A DNA stretch of 64,000 bases from a virus (lineage: Duplodnaviria > Caudoviricetes), in IMG/VR virus record IMGVR_UViG_3300028483_000002, positions 9,580-73,579 of that record. The stretch is one strand, 5' to 3'. The position numbers and the translations under genes are program-made. Under the pieces are notes generated by a model that was not told the DNA's origin, made no database searches, and saw only the letters and a program-made list of their open reading frames with translations. Below are positions 1,076 to 64,000 of the stretch, piece after piece; within the stretch, counting starts at the first letter, position 1, and the number at the start of each line of letters is the position of its first letter.

Positions 1076-1423
1076 TTATTCAAAAGTAGCTTTCGCTATT
1101 TCTTCTTCTGAATAACCTAATTCTCTTAATGTATCTGCATCTACTTTAGATTCATTTTTTTCCTTTGCTTTTATATAAGCATTTTTGATCATGTCTTTGT
1201 CAAAGTTCATATAATACTCAAACCAAATATAGAAAAATAAATTATCTAAATTATTATTATTCGAGTTTGTTGCTGCTAATATTGTCGAATAATCCTGGAC
1301 CACCATCATCTGAAACGTTTCCCACGGAAGCCACGTCCGAATAGATTCCTTCCCCATTATTTTCAAGGTGTTGTTGCACTTTGAGGCGAAATTCATACGC
1401 TTTCGCATACACCTCCTGAACAA
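1076..1423 (-). CDS. Second tail assembly chaperone ORF (gpT-like), true start uncertain
   Basis: Lies between the chaperone and tape measure genes and overlaps the upstream ORF by 167 nt in the +1 frame. Confidence 0.45.
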   Translation of the reverse strand: MFRRCMRKRMNFASKCNNTLKIMGKESIRTWLPWETFQMMVVQDYSTILAATNSNNNNLDNLFFYIWFEYYMNFDKDMIKNAYIKAKEKNESKVDADTLRELGYSEEEIAKATFE

Positions 1424-1769
1424 AACTTTGCAAAGGGATTAATCCCCAAGAAAAGTTTGCATTTTCTCTTTTTGCATTTTCATACCAAGTAGGGCCGGAA
1501 ATAACCAAGACATCTAAAGTTGCAATTTGTAACATAATTGATAAAGAAACTTCATCAAAGCATTCAGCAGGAATGTTACTTTGTCTATATGCTTTCAATC
1601 TACCAATAGCCTGTAAATCAGCCATTCTAGGATATTTGATTTTAAATTCCCCCCTAGAAGTTTGAATAGTTTCTGTTACATCTTTTCCCATAACTAACTG
1701 ATTGAACATACTTGTTTTTTCAACTTCGTTCAATACTTCTTCTTTTTTTTCGATTTTTTCAAGAACCAT
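1257..1769 (-). CDS. Tail assembly chaperone (gpG-like)
   Basis: Directly after the tail tube gene. The pattern GEFKIKYP...IATLDVLVISGPTW...YEFR resembles Twort-like chaperones. Confidence 0.6.
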   Translation of the reverse strand: MVLEKIEKKEEVLNEVEKTSMFNQLVMGKDVTETIQTSRGEFKIKYPRMADLQAIGRLKAYRQSNIPAECFDEVSLSIMLQIATLDVLVISGPTWYENAKRENANFSWGLIPLQSFVQEVYAKAYEFRLKVQQHLENNGEGIYSDVASVGNVSDDGGPGLFDNISSNKLE

Positions 1770-23457: not shown

Positions 23458-24978
23458 TTACCTCTTAATTGCATTATATTCCATTTTTGCAAGTTGTACA
23501 ATCCTTTTACTAAATGGGCTTGCGTTTTCGCCATATTGGTATACATCAGCAAAGGCTTCTGCAAATAGTTCCATATCAGTTTCTTCTGCATAATCAGAAA
23601 TAGTAAGTTTAGCATCTTCATAAGACATACCATTTAATTGAGTTTGTCGTATTTGTTCGTATGCTTTTTTACAAATTTCTACATCAGAATACATTCCATT
23701 ATTTTTTAATAATGCTGCTAAAACATGAGCTCCTTCATGATACCCAAATGATTCTGCATTTAATTGCTCATCCCCTGCATGAAAATATATATTCTTATCT
23801 TCCTCTTTTTTTGTTCCATCTTCAATTATAAACTTAGATCCAAAACTTATTTCTATTGGTTTTTCATTAATAAATTGAACACACATTATACAATTTTCTC
23901 TCGTAATTCCAATTCTTGGGATTAATTTTTGAACTAAAGGAAACTCATCAAGAAATTCAAGTAACCCAATAGAACATTTTTTCGTATCTTCAAACATTGC
24001 TCTTTTTTTTAAGTCGTCAGAAACTTCAATGCCATATTTATTTACTATATTTTCATAATCATCAAAGTTTCTTGCTTTATTTAATATATTTTTAGAAGTA
24101 TCTCTTTTATTATATTCTTTATGATAATTTTTAAATAAATCAATTCTTTTTTCAATATAGTTTGCTGCATTTACTACCTTTTTATTAGGAATCCCTTTTG
24201 ATATTAAAAATTCTGAAACCCTTTCAATAACATTTTCTGTCGTAACATCTTTGTTTAATATTTTTCGTAATACAGTTTTATATTCTTTTTGAACTAGTTT
24301 ATCCCCAATAAATAATTTAAAATAATTTTGTATAGATTTATTGTTTCCTTTTAGTACACCTTGGTTTGGGAATTTTATAACACTGGTAATAAAATTTTCT
24401 CTCTCTTTAGAAATATCAGAAATATTATTAAAAGTAGTTTTGCTAGTATTAAGTTTAGATTTACGTTCATTCACAGCATTTTTTAATTCTTCTACAATCG
24501 GCAGTAATTTACCATCGCTATCCATAAATCTATTTGTATTTTCCATGACAAGTTGCAATAATTCATCAATACTTTTTGCATTTTCAATTTTCTTCTTAAT
24601 AATTGCAATTGATTGATTTGCTCCCCTAGAATGCACATCATAGATTTTTCGCCATTTTCCAGGAGCAATTTTTCTGTATTTATGCCCTTTCCACTCTCTA
24701 ACAGTTCCTATACCATATCCCCTAGATTTATTAATGCTATATTCAGTTAAAAATGTACGAGCCATTGAATTATCATAATCTTCAATCGCTTTACTAATTA
24801 TCTTTTCTTCTCTTACTTCACTTTCTTCTAAGATTTTTAACAACTCTTTTTTAAAGTGATTCAAAATCCTATTTGAATGTTTGTTTATTAAATTGTCATA
24901 AACACTTTTCTTTACTGTAATCATTTCATACCCCACCTTAAAATTGTTTACAATAATTCCGGGAATACTCTTACCCAT
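23458..24978 (-). CDS. Putative capsid cargo protein with C-terminal zincin metallopeptidase (toxin-like); likely ATG 24924
   Basis: MITVKKSV leader, KSRGYGIGTVREWKG module, GYHEGAH plus ISDYAEETDMELFAEAF. Confidence 0.65.
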   Translation of the reverse strand: MGKSIPGIIVNNFKVGYEMITVKKSVYDNLINKHSNRILNHFKKELLKILEESEVREEKIISKAIEDYDNSMARTFLTEYSINKSRGYGIGTVREWKGHKYRKIAPGKWRKIYDVHSRGANQSIAIIKKKIENAKSIDELLQLVMENTNRFMDSDGKLLPIVEELKNAVNERKSKLNTSKTTFNNISDISKERENFITSVIKFPNQGVLKGNNKSIQNYFKLFIGDKLVQKEYKTVLRKILNKDVTTENVIERVSEFLISKGIPNKKVVNAANYIEKRIDLFKNYHKEYNKRDTSKNILNKARNFDDYENIVNKYGIEVSDDLKKRAMFEDTKKCSIGLLEFLDEFPLVQKLIPRIGITRENCIMCVQFINEKPIEISFGSKFIIEDGTKKEEDKNIYFHAGDEQLNAESFGYHEGAHVLAALLKNNGMYSDVEICKKAYEQIRQTQLNGMSYEDAKLTISDYAEETDMELFAEAFADVYQYGENASPFSKRIVQLAKMEYNAIKR

Positions 24979-27692
24979 GAACCTCTACACCACGGATGAA
25001 CAGTTGCAATTGGAGCATCACCATCCAATTTGCCTTCCCATATCGCATATTTTGCATAAGGATCTTTTATTCTTTCGTTTGGCAATGGAACATCACTCCA
25101 CAATGCAATAGCACCTTTTAATTTTTGGCACTTTTTACAGGTGTTGTCATCTAACACTTCATAGCGTTCAAAATATACCTTTTCTTCTGGTTTGGTGTTG
25201 TACACTTCTTCTTTGATATAAGCTGTATTTGTTGCAATTTGTAATTCTGTATCAGCGATTCGTTGCATATCCCTATTCAAACTTGCGCATTTATCAAATA
25301 AGTTTTGAGCCACAACCGACTTGCTTGATTTGTCTCTTACACCATCAATTATTATTTGTTGGATATTATTTCTCATATCATCTTTAACACGTGTAACTCT
25401 TTGAGTTGCAGAATCAATTGCAACTTGAATTCTTGCAGCCCTTTCTCTAGTGATACTTTCCCCAAAAACATCTTTTATGTTTTTAACACTCTCACTTATC
25501 CAATCAACATCTTTTCTTTTTATTTTTAATTCAGACAGGTGCATTTTTTTTATTGCAGATAAAGAATTTGTTTTACTTAATCGTTCCAATATAGCACCTA
25601 ATGCTTCGCCACTCAGAACAATTTTTTCACCAATACCAGAATAATTACGATTTAGAAACTTTTCTAATTCTGTAATAAAACGTTGCCATTCTTTAGTTGA
25701 TATTGGTTTACCATTTTCAGGATTGTAAATAACCTTACCTTTCCATTTCAATTTAGCTTTACTTACAATTCTTATATCAGGTAAATCAAAATAAGAAATC
25801 ACAAAATTATAAATTGCTAAAGTTTTTTGAGATAATTCTCTAAACAATTTATCTGTCAGTTCTTCTTCGGCCTTGTACAAAAACTTTTCACCTTGTACAG
25901 TTTTCATGTTTGTATCTAAAGACAATGAAACTTTATGCAGAGCTTTTTCAATTTTTTCTTTGTCAAAATTTGTAAATCTCAAATATAAATTATCATATCT
26001 TGTAGATTTATTATCAGATTGAATATGTTTAATTACAAAAGGTTTATTTTCGTAAATTGCATTAAGAGCCTTTTCTAATTGTTCATACTTTTTTTGTTTG
26101 TTATTTTCTGTAATATCAGTTATACAAACATCAAAGGATTTATGTATTCTACTACCTTGTTTTGAGAATACAAAAGACTTAAATTGTTCTACAGTTAAAG
26201 TTTCCATACTTCCAAAAAATCCTGGTCTATCATATTGTTTCATATATGCTTTTTTTGCTGCTTCTGCATTTTCAAAACACAACATACATTTATCTTCATC
26301 GTATTTATGAGTAACAGGATTGTTTTGATGAATTACATAAACTTTTTTTGCGTTTTTATCAGGACCAATATAACAATCTACAAAGTCTGAATCAGTCCCT
26401 ACAGTTCCCCTAATATATCCATAATCATAGTGCATTAAAGTTTTCCACTTATGCCCATCTGAATCAACACCACTTCTATAAGTTCCTTTTTTATTTTCAA
26501 TGGAAATATCCATGCCATAAAGTTTAGTTCTACCCTGTAATTTATGGCCGGAATAAGTTAAAGATTTTGTTAAAGCCTTATATGCTTTGTACGCAATTAC
26601 ATTTTCTACATCTTGATGCAATTGTTCTTCTGCTACAAACCTTGTCAATTTATCATCATACTTCTGAATAACAGAATCATAATTTAAGCCTTTTTTATCA
26701 CAAAGATGATGTAATTCTACTTTCCAATCAGTGAATAATGATTTTGTAACATTTTTACTTGACAAATTATTACAATGCACTATATTAATAGATGGAGATA
26801 GACTACAATCCGGTTGTAGTTGTAACGCTTTATTAAGCTGTCTCCCCTTAAATCCCTTGCTATTTTGCAAGGGATATTTTTTTAACAAAAGTTCTACAGA
26901 GTAGACTAACTTACCTGTAATTTTATATTCCTTAATTGTAATATATGCCATTCCTTTTCTTGTAGATAATTGAATAGGTATATTTCCTCTGTAAATAGAT
27001 TCTACGTTGTCATCACCTTTCCTATCTGGATATTTCTTAAAGTTTTCAACATTTTCAACAAGTTCTTTTATCTTTGATGCCGCTTCAAAATGCTCTTTTG
27101 TTGAAAAACCATTTAGAACAGATTTATTTATAGCTTTATCACAAGATAATTTATCAATAGATTTTTGAGAAAATCTAAATGTTAAATCTTTATTATGAAA
27201 GTTAGTCTGTTTATATTTTACCATTTCTTTCTTAAATGTATTTCTAAGCTCTGTTCTTAAAAGATATTCATTATGATCAATTTTTAATACTTTCCAAGCC
27301 GGAATTTTTTCATTTTCATTTTCTTTGTTTATAAAAATATAATCGTGAGAACCATTTATATAATATTCATATAAATCATACTTAGTCTTATCTAACTTAA
27401 ATTTTATTGGTTTTTGTTTTTCATCGGAAAGACCCTTTAATTTTTTTATTCTTATTCCATAAACATCAGCATCATATTCATATACCCAATGCCCATTTAC
27501 CCATCTTTTATTACGATATTTATGTGATTTTTGTATTTCTTTATCATTTTCAGAATATAAGTCCGATTTTTGCAGATTTTCTGCAAATTCGTCATTTAAA
27601 TTATCTTTTTTTTCATTTCTAACTTGCTTATAACTTTCTAATTTCTTTTTAATTTCTTCTGCAACAGATTTTTCAATTACTATTTTTCCCAT
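24948..27692 (-). CDS. MuF-family head morphogenesis protein fused to LPD3/BECR-like and inorganic-pyrophosphatase-like polyvalent domains
   Basis: C-terminal MuF motifs RIADTE...DDNTCKKCQKLKG...HPWCRG; InPase-like ISIENKKGTYRSG...HYDYGYIRGTVGTDSDFVDCYIG...YDEDKCML; LPD3-like KEHFEAASKIKELVEN...YPDRKGDDNV...AYITIKE...LVYSVEL. Confidence 0.75.
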   Translation of the reverse strand: MGKIVIEKSVAEEIKKKLESYKQVRNEKKDNLNDEFAENLQKSDLYSENDKEIQKSHKYRNKRWVNGHWVYEYDADVYGIRIKKLKGLSDEKQKPIKFKLDKTKYDLYEYYINGSHDYIFINKENENEKIPAWKVLKIDHNEYLLRTELRNTFKKEMVKYKQTNFHNKDLTFRFSQKSIDKLSCDKAINKSVLNGFSTKEHFEAASKIKELVENVENFKKYPDRKGDDNVESIYRGNIPIQLSTRKGMAYITIKEYKITGKLVYSVELLLKKYPLQNSKGFKGRQLNKALQLQPDCSLSPSINIVHCNNLSSKNVTKSLFTDWKVELHHLCDKKGLNYDSVIQKYDDKLTRFVAEEQLHQDVENVIAYKAYKALTKSLTYSGHKLQGRTKLYGMDISIENKKGTYRSGVDSDGHKWKTLMHYDYGYIRGTVGTDSDFVDCYIGPDKNAKKVYVIHQNNPVTHKYDEDKCMLCFENAEAAKKAYMKQYDRPGFFGSMETLTVEQFKSFVFSKQGSRIHKSFDVCITDITENNKQKKYEQLEKALNAIYENKPFVIKHIQSDNKSTRYDNLYLRFTNFDKEKIEKALHKVSLSLDTNMKTVQGEKFLYKAEEELTDKLFRELSQKTLAIYNFVISYFDLPDIRIVSKAKLKWKGKVIYNPENGKPISTKEWQRFITELEKFLNRNYSGIGEKIVLSGEALGAILERLSKTNSLSAIKKMHLSELKIKRKDVDWISESVKNIKDVFGESITRERAARIQVAIDSATQRVTRVKDDMRNNIQQIIIDGVRDKSSKSVVAQNLFDKCASLNRDMQRIADTELQIATNTAYIKEEVYNTKPEEKVYFERYEVLDDNTCKKCQKLKGAIALWSDVPLPNERIKDPYAKYAIWEGKLDGDAPIATVHPWCRGSWVRVFPELL
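26759..26883 (+). ncRNA. Putative antisense sRNA (promoter 26759-26786, RNA about 26791-26883) inside the MuF gene
   Basis: TTGACA-16-TATATT; GGAGATAG/CTGTCTCC closing stem with two inner hairpins; terminator ATCCCTTGC/GCAAGGGAT followed by a T tract. Confidence 0.55.
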
Positions 27693-34155: not shown

Positions 34156-35058
34156 TTACTCCTTATTTTCTTTTTCTATTTCTGCTTCTGCGTCGATTCC
34201 AGAAATTTCTTTGAATATTTCGTTATCCCAATTTGGCAAGCCAAGAAGTTTTTTATGTTCTTCTGTGTTTGCTTTATCCCAAGCAAGTTTAAACGCTTCT
34301 TTGTATTCAAGAGTTTTTAGAAAGCCACCACAAATTTCTATCTCTTGTTTGTGCTCTTTTTTTTCTTCATCAGTAGCAGTGTCGTGAGATACCCAAACAG
34401 TTAAGTCAAAGTAAAGAAATGATGGGAAATTAATATCATTTCTTTCAATAGCAGTTTCTTTATTGAACATTCTAAGTAATGGTGTGCTGGTATTGAAAAA
34501 ACCACTATTCCAATCGCCACTATTCCAATTGCCACTATTATAACTTCCACTGTTATAACTTCCAGTATTGTAAAAACCACTATTCCAATCGCCACTATTC
34601 CAATTGCCACTATTACGATCGCCACTATTACAATTGCCACTATTACGATCGCCACTATTCCAATTGCCACTATTATAACTTCCACTGTTATAACTTCCAG
34701 TATTGTAAAAACCACTATTCCAATCGCCACTATTCCAATCGCCACTATTACAATTGCCACTATTAATCAGTTCTTTTTTTTCATCTCCTGTAATCTCACG
34801 GAGGATTGTAATTGAATTCGTTCCGTACTTGTCGCCCTGTTTTATATATTCACCTGCGATAATTTCGCAAATTCTCGATTCTGAAAGTTTGTAATTACTT
34901 TCTTTTTTTATAGCAAGAAGTTCTCGACAAAAATGAAATACTTTGTCAGTACAACATTCTAAATCTTCTTTTTTAGTGTCTTTTGTATAAGTTTTTCCCA
35001 CTTCAAACTGGAATCCTCGACAACATAAATTTTGGTCAAATGCTTTATACCCTATCAT
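34156..35058 (-). CDS. Pentapeptide (NSGxx) repeat phage protein
   Basis: MIGYKAFD..L.CRGFQFEVGKTY N-terminus, a run of NSG(D/N)(W/C/R)/NTGSY repeats, and C-terminal LPNWDNEIFKEISGID. Confidence 0.8.
   Translation of the reverse strand: MIGYKAFDQNLCCRGFQFEVGKTYTKDTKKEDLECCTDKVFHFCRELLAIKKESNYKLSESRICEIIAGEYIKQGDKYGTNSITILREITGDEKKELINSGNCNSGDWNSGDWNSGFYNTGSYNSGSYNSGNWNSGDRNSGNCNSGDRNSGNWNSGDWNSGFYNTGSYNSGSYNSGNWNSGDWNSGFFNTSTPLLRMFNKETAIERNDINFPSFLYFDLTVWVSHDTATDEEKKEHKQEIEICGGFLKTLEYKEAFKLAWDKANTEEHKKLLGLPNWDNEIFKEISGIDAEAEIEKENKE
34497..34765. repeat. Tandem 15-bp repeat array (about 18 units) encoding the pentapeptides
   Basis: Recurrent CCACTATT(C/A)CAAT(C/T)G units with a higher-order duplicated block. 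Confidence 0.9.
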
Positions 35059-50354: not shown

Positions 50355-50375
50355 AGTGGCAAACTAACCTTATAA

Positions 50376-50446
50376 TTAACGTTTGTAAACTACAATTTAA
50401 TATAAAATACATCTGTTGCTTTGTCAATAATATTTACATTTGTTAA
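50376..50446 (-). promoter_or_regulatory. Promoter TTGACA-17-TATATT with two operators; duplicated at 57338-57412
   Basis: Near-identical approximately 70-bp block; operators TTAACGTTTGTAAA and TTTACATTTGTTAA. Confidence 0.8.
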
Positions 50447-57228: not shown

Positions 57229-57255
57229 AAATACTCCTTTATCGCCTGTGGGATA

Positions 57256-57329
57256 TGGCGGGCGTAGGGCTCGAACCTACAATCTCTGGATTATGATTCC
57301 AGTGAGTTAACCAATTTCTCCAACCCGCT
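57256..57329 (-). tRNA. tRNA-Met(CAU) with initiator-like features, CCA not encoded
   Basis: AGCGGGT/GCCCGCC acceptor stem, GAG/CTC D stem, CTGGA-ATCATAA-TCCAG anticodon arm, GTAGG-TTCGAGC-CCTAC T arm. Confidence 0.9.
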
Positions 57330-57337
57330 ATAAATAA

Positions 57338-57412
57338 TTAACGTTTGTAAACTACAATTTAATATAAAACACATCTGTTGTTTTGTCAATAATTTTTATT
57401 TACATTTGTAAA
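57338..57412 (-). promoter_or_regulatory. tRNA promoter TTGACA-17-TATATT with two operators
   Basis: Copy of 50376-50446; operators at 57338-57351 and 57399-57412. Confidence 0.8.
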
Positions 57413-58914: not shown

Positions 58915-59223
58915 CTATTTATTTTGAACGTATTTTACTTGATGGCTTTGATCAAAAAAATCTGTATAATTATTCAAAAAATTCTGAATATCCGGTATAG
59001 AAAATGCTTTGTATTCTCTACCGTTAGAACTTTTTTTATACACTAAACAGTTTATCATTTTTTTTTCATAAGCATTTTTCAAAGTTAGATATACTTTTGG
59101 AACAGAATAATCTTCTTTTCCAAAAATATAAAACCATAATTTACTTATCTCGTTATTTCCTTCGTTAATCATACGAGTAATCTCTCTAGCTGTATAAAAG
59201 TGAGTATCTTTATAAAAAATCAT
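58915..59223 (-). CDS. Hypothetical protein
   Basis: ORF in operon. Confidence 0.4.
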   Translation of the reverse strand: MIFYKDTHFYTAREITRMINEGNNEISKLWFYIFGKEDYSVPKVYLTLKNAYEKKMINCLVYKKSSNGREYKAFSIPDIQNFLNNYTDFFDQSHQVKYVQNK

Positions 59224-59227
59224 TTTA

Positions 59228-59521
59228 CTAATCTCCTTTCATAATTTTAAGACTTACTAAATCTTTAGTATTAACAACTCTAGATATTGTGCAACTACCA
59301 ATTTTAATCCTAGTTTGTGCCAAACCATTATGGCATAACATAGTCAATTCATCACATAATTCCTGCACTGTCATTCCAGTCTCTTTGTGAGCATACATGC
59401 CGCATTCTTTTTTTATTTGCTGATTCTGCAGCAGCTCACCCATTACAACATTCTTTGTAACTTTGCAAATGTGTTTAATCCCCTCTTTTTTATAATGTTT
59501 GCATTTTTTACAGTTAATCAT
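59228..59521 (-). CDS. Hypothetical protein
   Basis: CKKCKHY...C motif; SD present. Confidence 0.4.
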   Translation of the reverse strand: MINCKKCKHYKKEGIKHICKVTKNVVMGELLQNQQIKKECGMYAHKETGMTVQELCDELTMLCHNGLAQTRIKIGSCTISRVVNTKDLVSLKIMKGD

Positions 59522-59531
59522 TTTTTCCTCC

Positions 59532-60089
59532 CTATTCTTTAAAATTATTGCCTGTGTTATTATTTTCTAAATGAACAAATTCCGTATGATCAATAAAATC
59601 ATAACAAACATATCCACTACAAAAACTCGATGTTTTCCCATTAAAAGAAACCTTTTTATCTGGAATAATGAATTGAATGCCTTTCCCAACAAACTGAAAT
59701 AAATTCCCAATTTCTTGATAATTTATCGCCATCATATTCATCAACAAAACAAAAGGCCTATGTAAATCAAAAATAATACGTTCAAAAACATCTAACTTTA
59801 AGCTAAATGGTGGATTTGAAACAATTAAATCGTACGATTCTGGCTCATACTCAAAAAAATTTTTTCCATCATTTAGATGGCTTCTAACAACCTGAAAACC
59901 TTTTTTTTGTAGTATTTCTACATATTTTGACGTTTCTTCATCGAAAGGACACCAAATAATAGGTTTATGACCATTTTTTGATATAAAATCTGATTCCCAC
60001 TTTTGAAGATAAGGAACAATCATATTAACAAGAACGGAAGGCGTTTTCCACTCGTCTTGTACCTTAAATGTTTTCTTAAAACTTTTCAT
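59532..60089 (-). CDS. Small phage N6-adenine DNA methyltransferase
   Basis: DEWKTP, IIWCPFD, FFEYEP..YD.IVSNPPFS. Confidence 0.8.
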   Translation of the reverse strand: MKSFKKTFKVQDEWKTPSVLVNMIVPYLQKWESDFISKNGHKPIIWCPFDEETSKYVEILQKKGFQVVRSHLNDGKNFFEYEPESYDLIVSNPPFSLKLDVFERIIFDLHRPFVLLMNMMAINYQEIGNLFQFVGKGIQFIIPDKKVSFNGKTSSFCSGYVCYDFIDHTEFVHLENNNTGNNFKE

Positions 60090-60691
60090 TTTTCTCCACC
60101 CTTTAATAAATTAAAATTATTTTTAACTCTACATAAATAAATCTTTGTGCTTTCAGGAATTGTTCTGTTAATTGTTGCCCCAATACCACAGTTATAAGCC
60201 ATCACAACATCGTCAAAAATTTTCAACCTACTTTGTAACCATTCAATTTGGTGTAAGGCTATAAATGTGTTGTGTTTCCAATCAAAAGCATTCAGTTCAA
60301 CATTTTCAAACTTCCAAAAATTATTTGTAAAAGTTGTGTACAAATATTTATCATTAAGTTGCCACAATCCTAGATCCATAGTTCCGTTTTCATTCCTATG
60401 AGTGGCATTTAAATTAATTTCCGGATTCTCCTGCATTAAAATGGCAACTGCCAAATCAGGATCAATTTCTAATTCTGTACACATTCTGACTATATAATCA
60501 GATAGTTCAGCAGGCAGAAATTGATATTTATGTATATTTTCTTGCTCTGTTTCTATTTCTTCTGAAATAAAATCAACATATACAATTTTTTTCATTTTGA
60601 TTGACTCAAAATGTTTTCCAATTGCATAGCCAATAAAAAAACACCCAATAACAATAAGAATAATTAAACAAATTTTCCTAATTAATTTCAT
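60086..60691 (-). CDS. Membrane-anchored SLT lytic transglycosylase
   Basis: N-terminal transmembrane helix; AILMQEN, N.NGTMDLGLWQLN, VMAYNCG. Confidence 0.8.
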   Translation of the reverse strand: MKLIRKICLIILIVIGCFFIGYAIGKHFESIKMKKIVYVDFISEEIETEQENIHKYQFLPAELSDYIVRMCTELEIDPDLAVAILMQENPEINLNATHRNENGTMDLGLWQLNDKYLYTTFTNNFWKFENVELNAFDWKHNTFIALHQIEWLQSRLKIFDDVVMAYNCGIGATINRTIPESTKIYLCRVKNNFNLLKGGEK

Positions 60692-60701
60692 TTTCCCACC
60701 T

Positions 60702-61331
60702 TTATATCCATTTTATTTCTGGATTACCCTTAAATCCTTTTTCCCATACAAACCACCCATAAGCAATAGCACTTGACGGATATTTTTCAAAATCTCCATT
60801 TTTTGCACAGTTTCTGCGTTGTGAAAAAACATACAAGGTTCTAAACGGATTACTGTCAAATAATGCCCTTCTGCTTTGACTTTCTAAAAAAGTTAATTTT
60901 AAAAACATTGCTATTTTTGTTCCTTCTGGAGAAATGTTCAAAGCGTGTTCAACAAATTCTTTACATAATACATACGGAGGATTAGTTACAATATCATTTT
61001 TATTTTCTGTAATCCCCAAAAAATTTTTTATTTCTGTTCCAGGAAAACCTCTATCTACAATGTCTTTAGCAATTATTTTATACCCTTTTTCTTTAAGCAC
61101 TGCTGCTATATGCCCCCCACCCACACAAGGTTCTAATATTGTTTCAGAAAAACTTTCTCTTTCTAACAATTCATAAACAGCTCTTGGCTCTGTGGCATAA
61201 TAATCTTCATGCTGTCGTTCTTCTTTTGCGTAAGTTCTCGCACCATTACAAGTGAATATAGCTTTATTATTTTCAATCCAATCTTTTTTGTTTGATTTTT
61301 CTTCTATTTCGTTACCGAACAAATCAATCAT
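60702..61331 (-). CDS. Phage amino-methyltransferase (N6A/N4C)
   Basis: DYYATEP, ILEPCVGGGHI, DIVDRG, DIVTNPPY, LKLTFLES. Confidence 0.8.
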   Translation of the reverse strand: MIDLFGNEIEEKSNKKDWIENNKAIFTCNGARTYAKEERQHEDYYATEPRAVYELLERESFSETILEPCVGGGHIAAVLKEKGYKIIAKDIVDRGFPGTEIKNFLGITENKNDIVTNPPYVLCKEFVEHALNISPEGTKIAMFLKLTFLESQSRRALFDSNPFRTLYVFSQRRNCAKNGDFEKYPSSAIAYGWFVWEKGFKGNPEIKWI

Positions 61332-61514
61332 TCTTTACCACCTCAAATTGTACATCGCTAAAGTTTTCAGCCGATAAAATATAATCTTCATCTGCTGCCC
61401 TATACTTATCATCAACTAATTGCAAAGCTTCTCTTTCATTCTTTGCATCAACTTCTACAATCTTTACCAAATTTTCTGTTATCTTTACTTTCATTTATTT
61501 TCTCCTTTTTTTTA

Positions 61515-61669
61515 TTGACAAATATTTATTCTATCTGTAAACTATAGATGGTGATAGGAACGGTTTCAGTATCTACTATCGGACACACCAAGAAGTTGTC
61601 AATTAAAACTCCCTAGAAGGATCGGATATTGCACTTAACTGTGCCTCTATCGGGGCGGGAGTTTTTTTT
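61515..61669 (+). ncRNA. Putative convergent antisense sRNA (promoter 61515-61543, RNA about 61547-61669)
   Basis: TTGACA-17-TAAACT; 5' hairpin GATGGTGATA/TATCTACTATC; terminator AAAACTCCC/GGGAGTTTT followed by a T tract. Confidence 0.65.
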
Positions 61670-62294
61670 GTTTTAAAACCTTACACTTGCCTTTGTATTC
61701 AATAATTACATAACCATTCCTATTATCTTTTTTTATTTCATCTTTTAATTTTTTATACTTGTTATAAGTTATTTCACCCTTAATAGAAATGAAACAACTT
61801 GGAGCTTGTTTTTTTGTTTCATTAAATCTTGTTATTAGTTTATGTTCCCCAGTATTTTTTATTTCCATAAAATCTCTATCATTAAATAATTTATAAAAAA
61901 TATCAGCCTTTTTGTTATTAGAATAACTTTCTCTTAATAAATAAACATCAAAACCTAACATCTTTATTTTTTTACAAGTTTCTACTTCATCTTTACATCT
62001 TCCTTCTCTTACAGCATCTATTTTTCCAACAGAAACTTTTATACCTTCAAAATCTTCATAAGTTTCTTTTTCTAAATAATCTAAAAGTAATTCTCTATCT
62101 TTTTCAGATAATTCCATTATCCCTTTTTCTGTAAATCTTCCCTTATCATCTCTCGGATGCACAGCAGAATTAAATCCTTTTTGTACAGAATCTTCTTCAT
62201 GATTAAAAATTACATATATTTTAGGTTTATAATTCAACTTTTCCATTAGCTCATCATAAACTGATTTTCTTATTACTAATTTTACTTTACTCAT
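61647..62294 (-). CDS. Putative capsid cargo protein with HPRD motif and CdiA-C-like (PD-D/ExK tRNase-type) domain
   Basis: MSKVKLVIRKSVYDEL leader; QKGFNSAVHPRDDKGRFT; E.ETCKKI..LGFDVYLLRE...KKADI...MEIKN...KKQA..CFI. Confidence 0.55.
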   Translation of the reverse strand: MSKVKLVIRKSVYDELMEKLNYKPKIYVIFNHEEDSVQKGFNSAVHPRDDKGRFTEKGIMELSEKDRELLLDYLEKETYEDFEGIKVSVGKIDAVREGRCKDEVETCKKIKMLGFDVYLLRESYSNNKKADIFYKLFNDRDFMEIKNTGEHKLITRFNETKKQAPSCFISIKGEITYNKYKKLKDEIKKDNRNGYVIIEYKGKCKVLKQKKLPPR

Positions 62295-63051
62295 CTTTTT
62301 TTTCTCCGCAAACCAAAATATTTTTGTCCCTAAAGATATTCTCTAAATCAAAAACTGTTTTCCCATCACTTCTAAAAGGTATTTCAATTTTTGATTGTAA
62401 TTCTTTTAATTTTTCCCAATAGCCTGGAAGAAATAAAAACATATTTTCAAGTTCTTTTAAGTTTTTATTTCTGCAACACCAACAAGAAACACGGTCTAAA
62501 ACTTTGTAAAGTTCAATTCCGTTTTCTTCCCAATTAAAGCCTTTTTCATAGCAATAATTCAAACAGTCTTTTTCAGACATTCCCCATTCTGCTAAGGGAT
62601 AAATCTTCAATCTGTTTTTATATCTTTTCACTCTTTCTCTTAACAGTCTTTCTTGTTCGTCGACTGCTATTCCAACATATTCAACAATAAACTCATCGCC
62701 ATACTTTTTATTATTTTCTTTTATGGCATTAAGTTTTAATGTTGTTCCCCAACGACATAAACCACCACACCATTTATAGCCCGATTGTTTTTGCCCATTT
62801 CTCTTTTGCACTTCTTTTTCTAACATTGTGTAGAAAAAATCATGTTTCGGTTTTAACTCTGTAAACTGTATTTCACGCTTACCAAGTTCCTTTTTTATAA
62901 GTTCTTTATTTGTATAAATAGATTTAAATTCTGCTCCAATATCAAAATATACAACTTCATCTAATGGATAATTCAGTTCTAATAATTTCAATATCATCGC
63001 TAAACTATCTTTTCCAAAACTACAACTTGCTATGTATTTCACGCTTACCAA
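62287..63051 (-). CDS. PAPS reductase-family (PP-loop) protein
   Basis: ASCSFGKDSLAM, RWGT..LKL, YVGIA.DE..R, YPL.EWG.SEKDCL.YC, RVSCWCC. Confidence 0.85.
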   Translation of the reverse strand: MVSVKYIASCSFGKDSLAMILKLLELNYPLDEVVYFDIGAEFKSIYTNKELIKKELGKREIQFTELKPKHDFFYTMLEKEVQKRNGQKQSGYKWCGGLCRWGTTLKLNAIKENNKKYGDEFIVEYVGIAVDEQERLLRERVKRYKNRLKIYPLAEWGMSEKDCLNYCYEKGFNWEENGIELYKVLDRVSCWCCRNKNLKELENMFLFLPGYWEKLKELQSKIEIPFRSDGKTVFDLENIFRDKNILVCGEKKDE

Positions 63052-63151
63052 TACGCATTTATTCCGTATTGGATTTTCTACTTGCTAAAAGCCACGATTT
63101 CAAAATTACGCAACAATCACATCTCGCTGTTGCAACCTAGTCTACTAGGAA

Positions 63152-63850
63152 TTAAGCGTTTTCCTCCTTTCTATCCATAACTGTATTCTTATGAACTAAT
63201 GCAATCCTTTCATCTTCTGTCATATCATTCCATTTCTTTTTTCCTTGTATTCCTAATTGACTGAATAATGCACAAAAAACTGATACAACTATTGCATTGC
63301 CCGCAACCTTGTAGAGTTGCGAGTTAGATACAACTTTTTCTGCCCTATTAAACTGTTCTTCTTCAACATTCATCAATCTAAAACATTCTCTAGGAGTAAG
63401 TTTTCTGATTCTGTATCTTTCTACTACTGGTAAAATTGCAGTTTTCTTTCCTTCTGGTCTTGTTGTAATTGTTGGAGAAATCCCATCAGTTAAAACTTTC
63501 TGTTTAAAAGCGTCTATAATATCACCTTCTTGTGCGTTATTTTCTAAAATATGGGGATTCGCATATCCATGACACCCTGCAGAAATAGTTGGATATAACC
63601 CTTCTGTAGATACAACTGTTCCACATTGAGAACCTTCGTTACTTATTTGTCCTACTTTTTCAATTTTTACAACTTCTTCTTCAATTTCTTCTAACACTAA
63701 ATTATCCTTTTGAACTGTTGTTAAGGTGTTGCAAATACCTTCTGAATTTGGCTCTAATCTTTGTTCTAATTCTATTCCTGGTGTTCTGTCTGATGGATTA
63801 TTAGGATTGCGGCCTATCATTCTCACAATCTGTTTTTCTTCAATAATCAT
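63152..63850 (-). CDS. C5-cytosine DNA methyltransferase, C-terminal part (frame broken at a G9 tract)
   Basis: RIRKLTPRECFRLM...SNSQLYKVAGNAIVV (motifs IX and X); repeated PTI/PTL TRD-like units. Confidence 0.8.
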   Translation of the reverse strand: MIIEEKQIVRMIGRNPNNPSDRTPGIELEQRLEPNSEGICNTLTTVQKDNLVLEEIEEEVVKIEKVGQISNEGSQCGTVVSTEGLYPTISAGCHGYANPHILENNAQEGDIIDAFKQKVLTDGISPTITTRPEGKKTAILPVVERYRIRKLTPRECFRLMNVEEEQFNRAEKVVSNSQLYKVAGNAIVVSVFCALFSQLGIQGKKKWNDMTEDERIALVHKNTVMDRKEENA

Positions 63851-63980
63851 AGGCTCTCTGCCCCCCCCCTTGCATTGTCGTTAATGTCGGACATAATCCG
63901 TTTTTATCCCAAACATTCCCCGCAAACCCTAGTCCTGCTTTTTCGTTGTAAATATTCCCTAAACGGATTACTTTTGACAT
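63840..63980 (-). pseudogene. Upstream out-of-frame segment of the C5 methyltransferase
   Basis: MSKVIRLGNIY...GNVWDKNGLCPTLTTMQGGG joins the downstream ORF if the G9 at 63861-63869 is G8. Confidence 0.65.
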
Positions 63981-64000
63981 TCAATTACACCCCCCCCCCC

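Follow-up and report, generated by a model that had tools for sequence, protein, structure and literature searches.

A CdiA-CT-like nuclease gene in a virus of the Caudoviricetes and its convergent structured small RNA: a candidate toxin/RNA antidote pair shared with prophages and Treponema chromosomes

The DNA analyzed here, referred to as the window, is a stretch of 64,000 nucleotides (nt) that corresponds to bases 9580-73579 of the 73.6-kb virus record IMGVR_UViG_3300028483_000002 (Caudoviricetes), and nearly all of its genes are carried on the minus strand. Our subject is one of these genes, P0001, which encodes a 215-amino-acid (aa) protein with a predicted nuclease domain, together with a small RNA (sRNA) that is predicted to be transcribed toward the gene from the plus strand. 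The sRNA and its promoter sit within the 152-nt gap between the open reading frame (ORF) of P0001 and that of a 56-aa DpnD/PcfM-like gene (Table 1). The promoter agrees with the consensus at 10 of 12 positions and was the joint best site across 59000-64000 in a consensus scan. From about position 61545 the predicted transcript runs for ~120 nt and folds into three hairpins, the last of which is the terminator. Its 5' and 3' parts are designated modules D and C. The outer stem of module C pairs AAAACUCCC (61605-61613) with GGGAGUUUU (61657-61665) and leads into a run of eight U residues (61662-61669), and the module further comprises the core CCUAGAAGGAUCGG (61612-61625), an inner hairpin, and CGGGGCGG (61651-61658). 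The ORF of P0001 ends in KKLPPR followed by TAG (complement at 61647-61667), and the 3' arm of the terminator and the U-tract overlap this stop codon and the last six codons. An earlier note on this DNA had described a promoter, a multi-hairpin RNA of this length, and a terminator lying over the stop codon and KKLPPR, and each of these was found where it had been placed. The sRNA region contains no tandem repeats, and blastn of 61300-62300 against phage GenBank gave no match. The window alone is weak evidence for an sRNA unit; the observation rises above chance because the same arrangement is conserved beside homologous genes elsewhere.

Homologous genes and their flanks were gathered from IMG/VR, public assemblies, GTDB genomes, and JGI metagenomes, and the strand opposite the gene was read downstream of each stop codon; the named GTDB records were all Treponema, Treponemataceae, or Spirochaetaceae metagenome-assembled genomes (MAGs). 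A convergent promoter, a structured RNA, and a terminator were present at the 3' end of the gene in all 25 distinct regions with enough downstream DNA, which bears out the suggestion that the convergent sRNA is a conserved partner of the gene. The proteins encoded in these regions, which come from phages, prophages, and Treponema chromosomes, are 41-96% identical, and those outside the clade of the window are just 41-56% identical to the window protein. The layout begins with TTGACA or TTGACT, separated by 16-17 nt from a box resembling TATAAT; structured RNA of 70-200 nt comes next, and the terminator at its end adjoins or runs into the last codons with its stem or U-tract. A regular expression (TTGACW-N16/17-TAnnnT) matched the promoter in 22 of 26 regions, and three more were recognized by eye in forms outside that expression (TATTAT in L001, TATAAG in L018 and L153); the 26th region, L012, ends 68 nt past the gene. 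At the position that corresponds to the window promoter, L001/L002 have TTGACA-17-TATTAT and L169 has TTGACA-17-TATATT.

The contexts of these loci are unrelated. They include the phage early region (the window and L001/L002), the neighborhood of prophage CI-like repressors (L003-L007 and L013), a site between xseAB/mutL and leucine-rich repeat (LRR) genes on a Treponema chromosome (L008), and a Fic/PIN/BrnT island (L010); the gene and the RNA travel together. In an all-against-all comparison of flanking ORFs from 19 contexts, no protein family was shared, and the two largest clusters were frames that run through the RNA modules, with inconsistent ends and frame-breaking indels. The claim that no protein immunity gene follows P0001 thus extends to its relatives, given that no conserved protein partner was found in the flanks of these contexts. 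The DpnD/PcfM-like gene follows the RNA in the window and L001/L002 only, its place being taken elsewhere by a helix-turn-helix (HTH) gene, an LRR gene, or no gene, and it is therefore context and not a conserved partner. In the protein tree, the RNA module beside the gene tracks the protein clade, as is to be expected of an RNA and a gene that physically overlap.

The RNA bodies are of five types, modules A to E (Table 1). Module A forms a three-way junction in which 98% of alignment cells are paired, compared to 34-57% in shifted controls, and seven of its pairs show compensatory changes, a number equaled by 1 of 500 shuffles; one helix changes from CUCC/GGAG to CUUC/GAAG in L015. In module B, 98.7% of cells are paired, and its three compensatory pairs were equaled by 3 of 500 shuffles. 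G-U pairs account for 36 of 249 cells in A and 44 of 230 in B, and since these become A-C mismatches on the gene strand, the selected structure belongs to the convergent strand. Certain unpaired stretches are near-invariant, namely GGUAU and AUUAAAAGUU in A and CUUAAUGUUC, UCGGGGC, and UGUUACCUAGGCGG in B. Modules A and B are absent from the window, where a single R2 hit (1427-1479) has an E value of 0.28. Rfam returned nothing at threshold over the window, and nothing with an E value under 0.1 when the search was confined to the window region, A+C of L001, or A+B of L015.

Modules B and C have the short motifs CCUAG, AAGG(A)UCGG, and GGGGCGG in common. The core of module C (CCUAGAAGGAUCGG ... 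CGGGGCGG) is common to the window, L001, L169, and L012, the last with a protein 56% identical, and the inner stem of L012 shows compensatory pair changes that surround a conserved G-G mismatch; this comparison was made by eye, as MAFFT misaligned the 3' half. The GGGGCGG motif encodes PPR in the window and is noncoding in L012. L169 has a 90% identical protein, different neighbor genes, and a better -10 box (TATATT) than the window, and its module D differs from that of the window by two substitutions. Because the window and L001 (proteins 95-96% identical) share module C and have unrelated 5' modules (D versus A), the overlapping 3' part is probably the indispensable piece in the window clade. 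The nuclease frame of L169 (1977-2054, minus strand) is altered near its end by one extra nucleotide in the terminator's 3' arm (TATCGTGGGCGGGAG), so that the protein has 230 aa versus 215, and to judge from this one difference the coding end and the RNA stem are tightly interlocked.

Table 1. Features of the window and RNA modules of the homologous loci (positions are those of the window)
Feature	Position or length	Strand	Details
P0001, 215 aa	61647..62294	-	HPRDDKGRF motif at aa 46-54; CdiA-CT-type PD-(D/E)xK domain at aa ~84-209
Convergent sRNA promoter	61515..61543	+	-35 TTGACA 61515-61520; 17-nt spacer; -10 TAAACT 61538-61543
sRNA 5' part (module D)	61544..61602	+	Begins ATAGATGGTGATAG; long hairpin ~61547-61580; small hairpin ~61582-61600
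sRNA 3' part (module C) and terminator	61603..61669	+	From terminator scan and folds of both strands
Promoter-like site TTGACA-16-GATAGT	61602 to 61575	-	Inside module D; 10/12 positions in consensus scan, equal to the sRNA promoter
DpnD/PcfM-like gene, 56 aa	61324..61494	-	Pfam PF14207, E 6.8e-15
MuF/LPD3/InPase polyvalent protein gene	24948..27692	-	34 kb from the 215-aa gene
Second antisense unit	26760-26885	+	Inside the MuF gene; TTGACA-16-TATATT (26760-26787), then ATAGATGGAGATAG, hairpins, terminator
Module A	~85 nt		Alone; before B (L003, L015); after B (L148); before C (L001/L002)
Module B	~81 nt		Alone (L013, L150); after a small hairpin (L008, L018, L020, L152); with A (L003, L015, L148)
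Module C	3' part of window sRNA		Window, L001, L169, L012
Module D	5' part of window sRNA		Window and L169 only
Module E			Plain long hairpin; L171, a more distant member

The linkage of the RNA to the gene was followed with covariance-model searches that covered 156 Treponemataceae genomes in all. Five Treponema genomes that carry the gene have one copy of module A each, and it lies at the gene. The other 151 were sampled from the same family; among them, module A was found in one further genome (L165), where tblastn showed that a full homologue ends at the RNA, and module B was found in two genomes. These two hold three copies of module B, the second copy being in the Treponema MAG G001. Each copy of A or B that was found has at its side the 3' end of a homologue, either a full gene or one reduced to a 30-aa remnant. 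The remnant belongs to L168 (G001, contig 16), where the second copy of module B (1501-1580, plus strand), located 1.3 kb from the intact module, adjoins a C-terminal piece of the nuclease gene identified by tblastn (1587-1676, minus strand). On its sequence, L168 is a decayed copy in which the RNA has outlived the gene. In IMG/VR, true copies of A and C were found only in L001/L002 contigs, which also carry the gene, and a pattern scan found no copy of module D outside the window's own lineage. Other IMG/VR pattern matches for A to D were rejected as chance 14- to 16-mers, with alignment scores of at most 23, compared to 41-63 for true copies, and no upstream promoter. Pattern scans of 401 Spirochaetota genomes found B only in G001; six matches to the A pattern in these genomes failed the covariance model, and a control pattern matched equally often.

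The protein encoded by P0001 did not match any Pfam, PHROG, NCBIfam, or PADLOC family above threshold, and the only weak hits were subthreshold matches of its relatives to YraN and SduA, both PD-(D/E)xK proteins. Residues E103, D131, E144, and K146 are invariant across eleven homologues (41-90% identity), as is an N-terminal HPRDxxGRF segment. An AlphaFold (AF2) model built on the homologue alignment had a moderate predicted local distance difference test score (pLDDT 73), with a confident C-terminal domain. The best Foldseek match of the model was 4g6v_A, the CdiA-CT of Burkholderia pseudomallei 1026b (E 0.046), followed by Hjc-type resolvases. VIA-align, which is independent of Foldseek, gave the same entry a Z score of 8.2 with a root-mean-square deviation of 3.6 over 112 aa; the next rows were CdiA-CT E479 (5.5), a type IIS restriction enzyme (5.4), CdiA-CT YPIII (5.2), and CdiA-CT EC869 (4.9). 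The model together with the invariant PD-(D/E)xK residues supports a CdiA-CT-like fold for P0001, and the CdiA-C-like label given in the earlier note is sound as a fold assignment. The same note had called the product a tRNase, which goes further than the structures allow: the structural relatives of P0001 comprise tRNases as well as DNases, so tRNase specificity is not established.

A profile search against 1.8 billion representatives returned few full-length members of the P0001 family. It showed instead that the HPRDxxGRF segment is repeated 3-9 times per protein in proteins of 700-3700 aa and that the nuclease domain occurs once per giant protein, in the company of MuF, Zeta toxin, ART, RadC, RNase T, or PBECR3. 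These giant proteins are polyvalent proteins as defined by Iyer et al. 2017 (PMC5512222), and the 215-aa gene looks like one free-standing cassette from their effector pool. Among the HPRDxxGRF proteins examined (P0021, P0022, P0028, P0030, P0031, P0036, and P0038), the motif, which in P0001 lies at window positions 62133-62159 on the minus strand, is spaced every 150-400 aa at domain borders, and in P0021 it stands directly after MuF and at the start of the ART domain. By its placement, the motif looks like interdomain punctuation and is perhaps a processing or docking site; we did not find it described in the polyvalent-protein paper (PMC5512222).

We found no ground for regarding P0001 as virion-delivered cargo, as the earlier note had proposed. 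The gene lies in a methylase/PAPS-reductase/replication region without a MuF fusion, its homologues stand alone in Treponema chromosomes and toxin-antitoxin islands, and its connection to polyvalent proteins is limited to the HPRDxxGRF motif and the type of domain. It shares 8 nt at its start with the end of a PAPS-reductase-like gene, and its other neighbors are a C5-methylase gene, the DpnD gene, two N6-methylase-like genes, and a gene for an SLT domain protein.

An antisense unit of similar design lies inside the MuF gene (Table 1), with a terminator of the form CCCTTGC..GCAAGGG plus a T-run and an RNA fold z-score of -5.7. There are exactly two copies of the 14-mer ATAGATGGWGATAG, at 61544 and 26788, each right after the -10 box of a TTGACA-N16/17 promoter. 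The shared start of the two RNAs, which had been pointed out before, is thus real, and chance was ruled out as its source since both copies follow a promoter in the same register. In the related phage G156, a promoter and a terminator are found at the equivalent site in a large ORF (L172, ~1380-1510, minus strand), and the RNA between them has a similar start (AGAGTCGGTGGTAG) and a different body. These comparisons suggest that the phage lineage carries at least two antisense units of one design. They do not show RNA neutralization of a virion-delivered RNase.

Elsewhere in the window, a tRNA/tmRNA scan found tRNA-Met (57255-57330) only, and immediately adjoining it is one copy (57334-57398) of a 65-nt direct repeat that is 95% identical to its other copy at 50372-50436 and contains a TTGTCAATAAT-type promoter-like sequence. 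About 25 tandem 15-nt repeats (34461-34835) within ORF 34156..35058 (minus strand) encode a pentapeptide-repeat segment. The frame of the C5-methylase gene (ORFs 63152..63850 and 63840..63980) is broken by C-runs on the plus strand, G-runs on the gene strand, at 63861-63869 and 63990-64000; the second of these coincides with the end of the virus record and is possibly an assembly or sequencing artifact.

We propose that the 215-aa gene and the convergent sRNA constitute a toxin/RNA antidote pair, most likely of a cis-antisense kind, a proposal that we judge to have somewhat better than even prospects. It starts from what was observed at these loci: the anatomy, its conservation, the covarying structure and the strand to which it belongs, the exclusive linkage, the nuclease fold with its catalytic residues, and the lack of a conserved protein partner. 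What we infer from these is that the RNA is transcribed, that the nuclease is toxic, that the RNA protects, and how it would act. A real sRNA gene that is functionally coupled to the nuclease gene is highly probable. That the sRNA is an antidote for the nuclease is somewhat more likely than not, and an RNA antidote fits best because a toxin-type nuclease lacks a protein antidote and is accompanied by an obligatory, strongly promoted, structured convergent RNA. That antisense pairing would be its main mode of action is a tentative suggestion, slightly favored over direct binding to the protein. In the proposed mechanism, a CdiA-CT-like PD-(D/E)xK nuclease toxin would be held by an RNA in place of a protein immunity gene. 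A strong sigma-70-type promoter would drive the sRNA toward the gene, and a shared hairpin covering the stop codon and last codons would terminate transcripts on both strands. Because this bidirectional terminator overlaps the end of the gene, the toxin mRNA would carry at its 3' end the complete complement of the sRNA's 3' module or more (~65 nt here). Abundant sRNA could then pair in cis with the mRNA 3' end and lead to duplex-dependent cleavage or decay, for which the Bacillus type I systems with RNAs overlapping at their 3' ends would be the precedent, and toxin synthesis would be limited; once sRNA synthesis stops, the nuclease would be released. The convergent overlapping layout is the sole feature common to all five RNA types, which favors antisense action, as does the retention of the overlapping module C in the window and L001 despite their unrelated 5' modules.

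Several observations weigh against this proposal. The -10 box of the window (TAAACT) is the weakest of the homologous set, the z-score of the window sRNA fold is only -1.55, and two further results weaken the evidence from the single window, namely that the terminator hairpin folds on either strand and that the consensus scan found 21 promoter-like sites where 25 were expected in shuffled sequence. The conserved convergent layout could reflect plain inheritance. Pairing of the sRNA with the translation start region of the toxin was no better than shuffled (z -2.1 to +1.3; the duplex output was hard to read), and the near-invariant unpaired stretches of A and B appear to suit a binding partner better than simple antisense. 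Type I toxins are small membrane peptides and not 200-aa nucleases. In addition, the phage toxin gene lies inside an operon, and part of the intergenic signal may serve the downstream genes, via read-through or the minus-strand promoter-like site.

An alternative that takes up the unpaired stretches holds that modules A, B, and C bind and block the nuclease protein as CdiI would, in the manner of a type III antitoxin, the convergent overlap being mere packaging. We consider this unlikely, even though a good deal speaks for it: the loops and junctions of A and B are near-invariant across proteins that are 45-50% identical while their stems covary, the modules are autonomous and their order varies (A, B, A+B, and B+A in L148), B and C share motifs, the GGGGCGG core of module C is retained whether it is coding (window) or not (L012), and the RNA is linked exclusively to the gene. 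Against it, at least five unrelated RNA bodies (A to E), including the plain hairpin of L171, accompany one conserved nuclease domain, and in the window lineage A was swapped for D with the protein almost unchanged. Moreover, neither tandem repeats nor signs of ToxI-type processing sites were found, and in known type III systems the antitoxin precedes the toxin on the same strand. Should this improbable reading nevertheless apply, RNA would have replaced the CdiI immunity proteins in a new class of toxin/RNA-antitoxin or abortive-infection module, one that would have been derived from the polyvalent-protein effector repertoire and spread through Treponema chromosomes, prophages, and phages. 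The strict linkage and the conserved RNA structure would also be expected if the RNA were another kind of partner or regulator, for example, a cofactor, sensor, or substrate mimic of the nuclease, or a timer for the phage early operon, which it would trim through transcriptional interference or by having the polycistronic RNA processed. The window gene does sit in an operon, translationally coupled to the upstream gene and with DpnD and methylase genes downstream, and the unit in the MuF gene with the same 14-nt start, along with the unit in the related phage, hints at phage-wide use. However, on the chromosomes the gene and RNA have no operon around them to regulate, a variable segment of the guide type is not evident, and a free-standing CdiA-CT-like nuclease whose catalytic residues are intact would need an antidote of some sort if it lacks an immunity protein. 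We regard such a role as distinctly improbable.

We give still less credence to two readings without a functional sRNA. In one of them, an ordinary bidirectional terminator lies next to AT-rich promoter-like sequence, and the real promoter is the minus-strand site at 61602-61575, which could on its sequence be a putative promoter for the downstream DpnD/methylase genes. The shuffled frequency of promoter-like sites, the equal score of the minus-strand site, the folding of the hairpin on both strands, and the weak fold z-score of the window sRNA all agree with this. It is nonetheless very improbable, given that it leaves unexplained the convergent near-consensus promoters at the right distance in 25 of 25 regions, as well as covarying RNAs with convergent-strand G-U pairs and exclusive linkage in unrelated contexts; the minus-strand site itself is kept in L169 merely as part of module D. 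In the other, the transcript is a leaderless mRNA for a small antidote protein, such as the 22-codon frame from the ATG at 61548 to the TAG at 61614-61616. An ATG does occur ~5 nt past the -10 box and in the same register in the unit at 26788, but it lacks a ribosome-binding site and is absent from the unit in L172. Across modules A and B there is no conserved frame, the ATG being ATA in L003/L007 and loop indels of 1-2 nt, not multiples of three, shifting the frames, and changes are compensatory in stems instead of synonymous in codons. We rejected the small-ORF reading of the RNA for the want of a conserved frame across A and B, and an antidote protein of this kind has next to no likelihood.

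The toxin/RNA antidote pair that we favor resembles several known systems in part. Type I pairs with RNAs that overlap at the 3' end are known from Bacillus subtilis (txpA/RatA, bsrG/SR4, bsrE/SR5, and yonT/SR6) and are often prophage-borne. Judged here from the genes alone, the present system is like them in its strongly promoted convergent sRNA, its 3' overlap at a shared bidirectional terminator, the absence of a protein antitoxin, and its location in prophages and islands, and the antisense overlap that characterizes type I systems is found at the sequence level in the window and in 25 of 25 relatives. It is unlike them in that the toxin is not a small hydrophobic membrane peptide, usually of less than 60 aa, but a soluble PD-(D/E)xK protein of ~200 aa (215 aa for P0001), and in that its RNAs have conserved multihelix modules with invariant loops. 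Precedent for a nuclease-type toxin under an antisense sRNA comes from Escherichia coli, where the toxins of the type I pairs RalR/RalA and SymE/SymR are nuclease-like and RalRA is prophage-borne; these toxins have folds unrelated to that of P0001, however, and their sRNAs pair in the coding region or at the 5' end and have no conserved structured modules. Type III systems (ToxIN, CptIN, and TenpIN) are associated with phages or abortive infection, and the likeness to them lies in a nuclease toxin with a structured RNA as putative antidote, in the conservation of RNA sequence and structure, and in the phage association. In contrast to type III, the fold here is PD-(D/E)xK and not ToxN/AbiQ, with no PADLOC or Pfam match to ToxN or AbiQ, and the RNA lies downstream on the opposite strand, with no tandem repeat array and no sign of processing by the toxin.

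The CdiA-CT/CdiI pairs of the PD-(D/E)xK type (Bp1026b, E479, YPIII, and EC869; PDB 4g6v, 5j4a, 4zqu, and 4g6u) provide the best structural matches and have the same catalytic E/D/E-x-K residues, whereas P0001 is free-standing and not the C-terminal tip of a CdiA, lacks an immunity gene, and is only 8-15% identical to them. To our knowledge, CdiA-CT-type nuclease domains of polymorphic toxins are always neutralized by cognate immunity proteins, and the toxins known to us to have RNA antidotes are limited to small type I peptides, a handful of odd nucleases, and RNases of the ToxN kind. With the polyvalent-protein effectors (Iyer et al. 2017, PMC5512222), P0001 shares the HPRDxxGRF motif and the nuclease domain, and the MuF protein of the window (LPD3, InPase, and MuF) is of that kind; unlike them, P0001 is a single-domain gene outside the structural module and has chromosomal homologues. 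In the searchable literature, we found neither a description of an RNA partner of polyvalent-protein domains nor one of this nuclease/RNA pairing, for which a preprint on mining noncoding elements (10.64898/2026.09.22.753630) might hold an earlier description.

If the proposal is correct, the range of toxins held by RNA would be wider, with a CdiA-CT-like nuclease family that has a convergent RNA and never a conserved protein partner, modules A and B, neither of which is in Rfam, would add no fewer than two covarying RNA motifs to those known, and the polyvalent-protein effector pool would be linked to chromosomal toxin-antitoxin or defense modules, all in a compact system of one gene and ~100-200 nt. 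Each of the known classes fails on at least one defining feature. By analogy, the nearest in architecture are the prophage-borne Bacillus type I pairs, and the nearest in logic are the type III and CdiA-CT/CdiI systems. A toxin with an RNA antitoxin is thus familiar as a kind, and the candidate novelty, as far as sequence comparison can point to it, lies in the class of toxin that would take this role and in the RNA motifs that accompany it.

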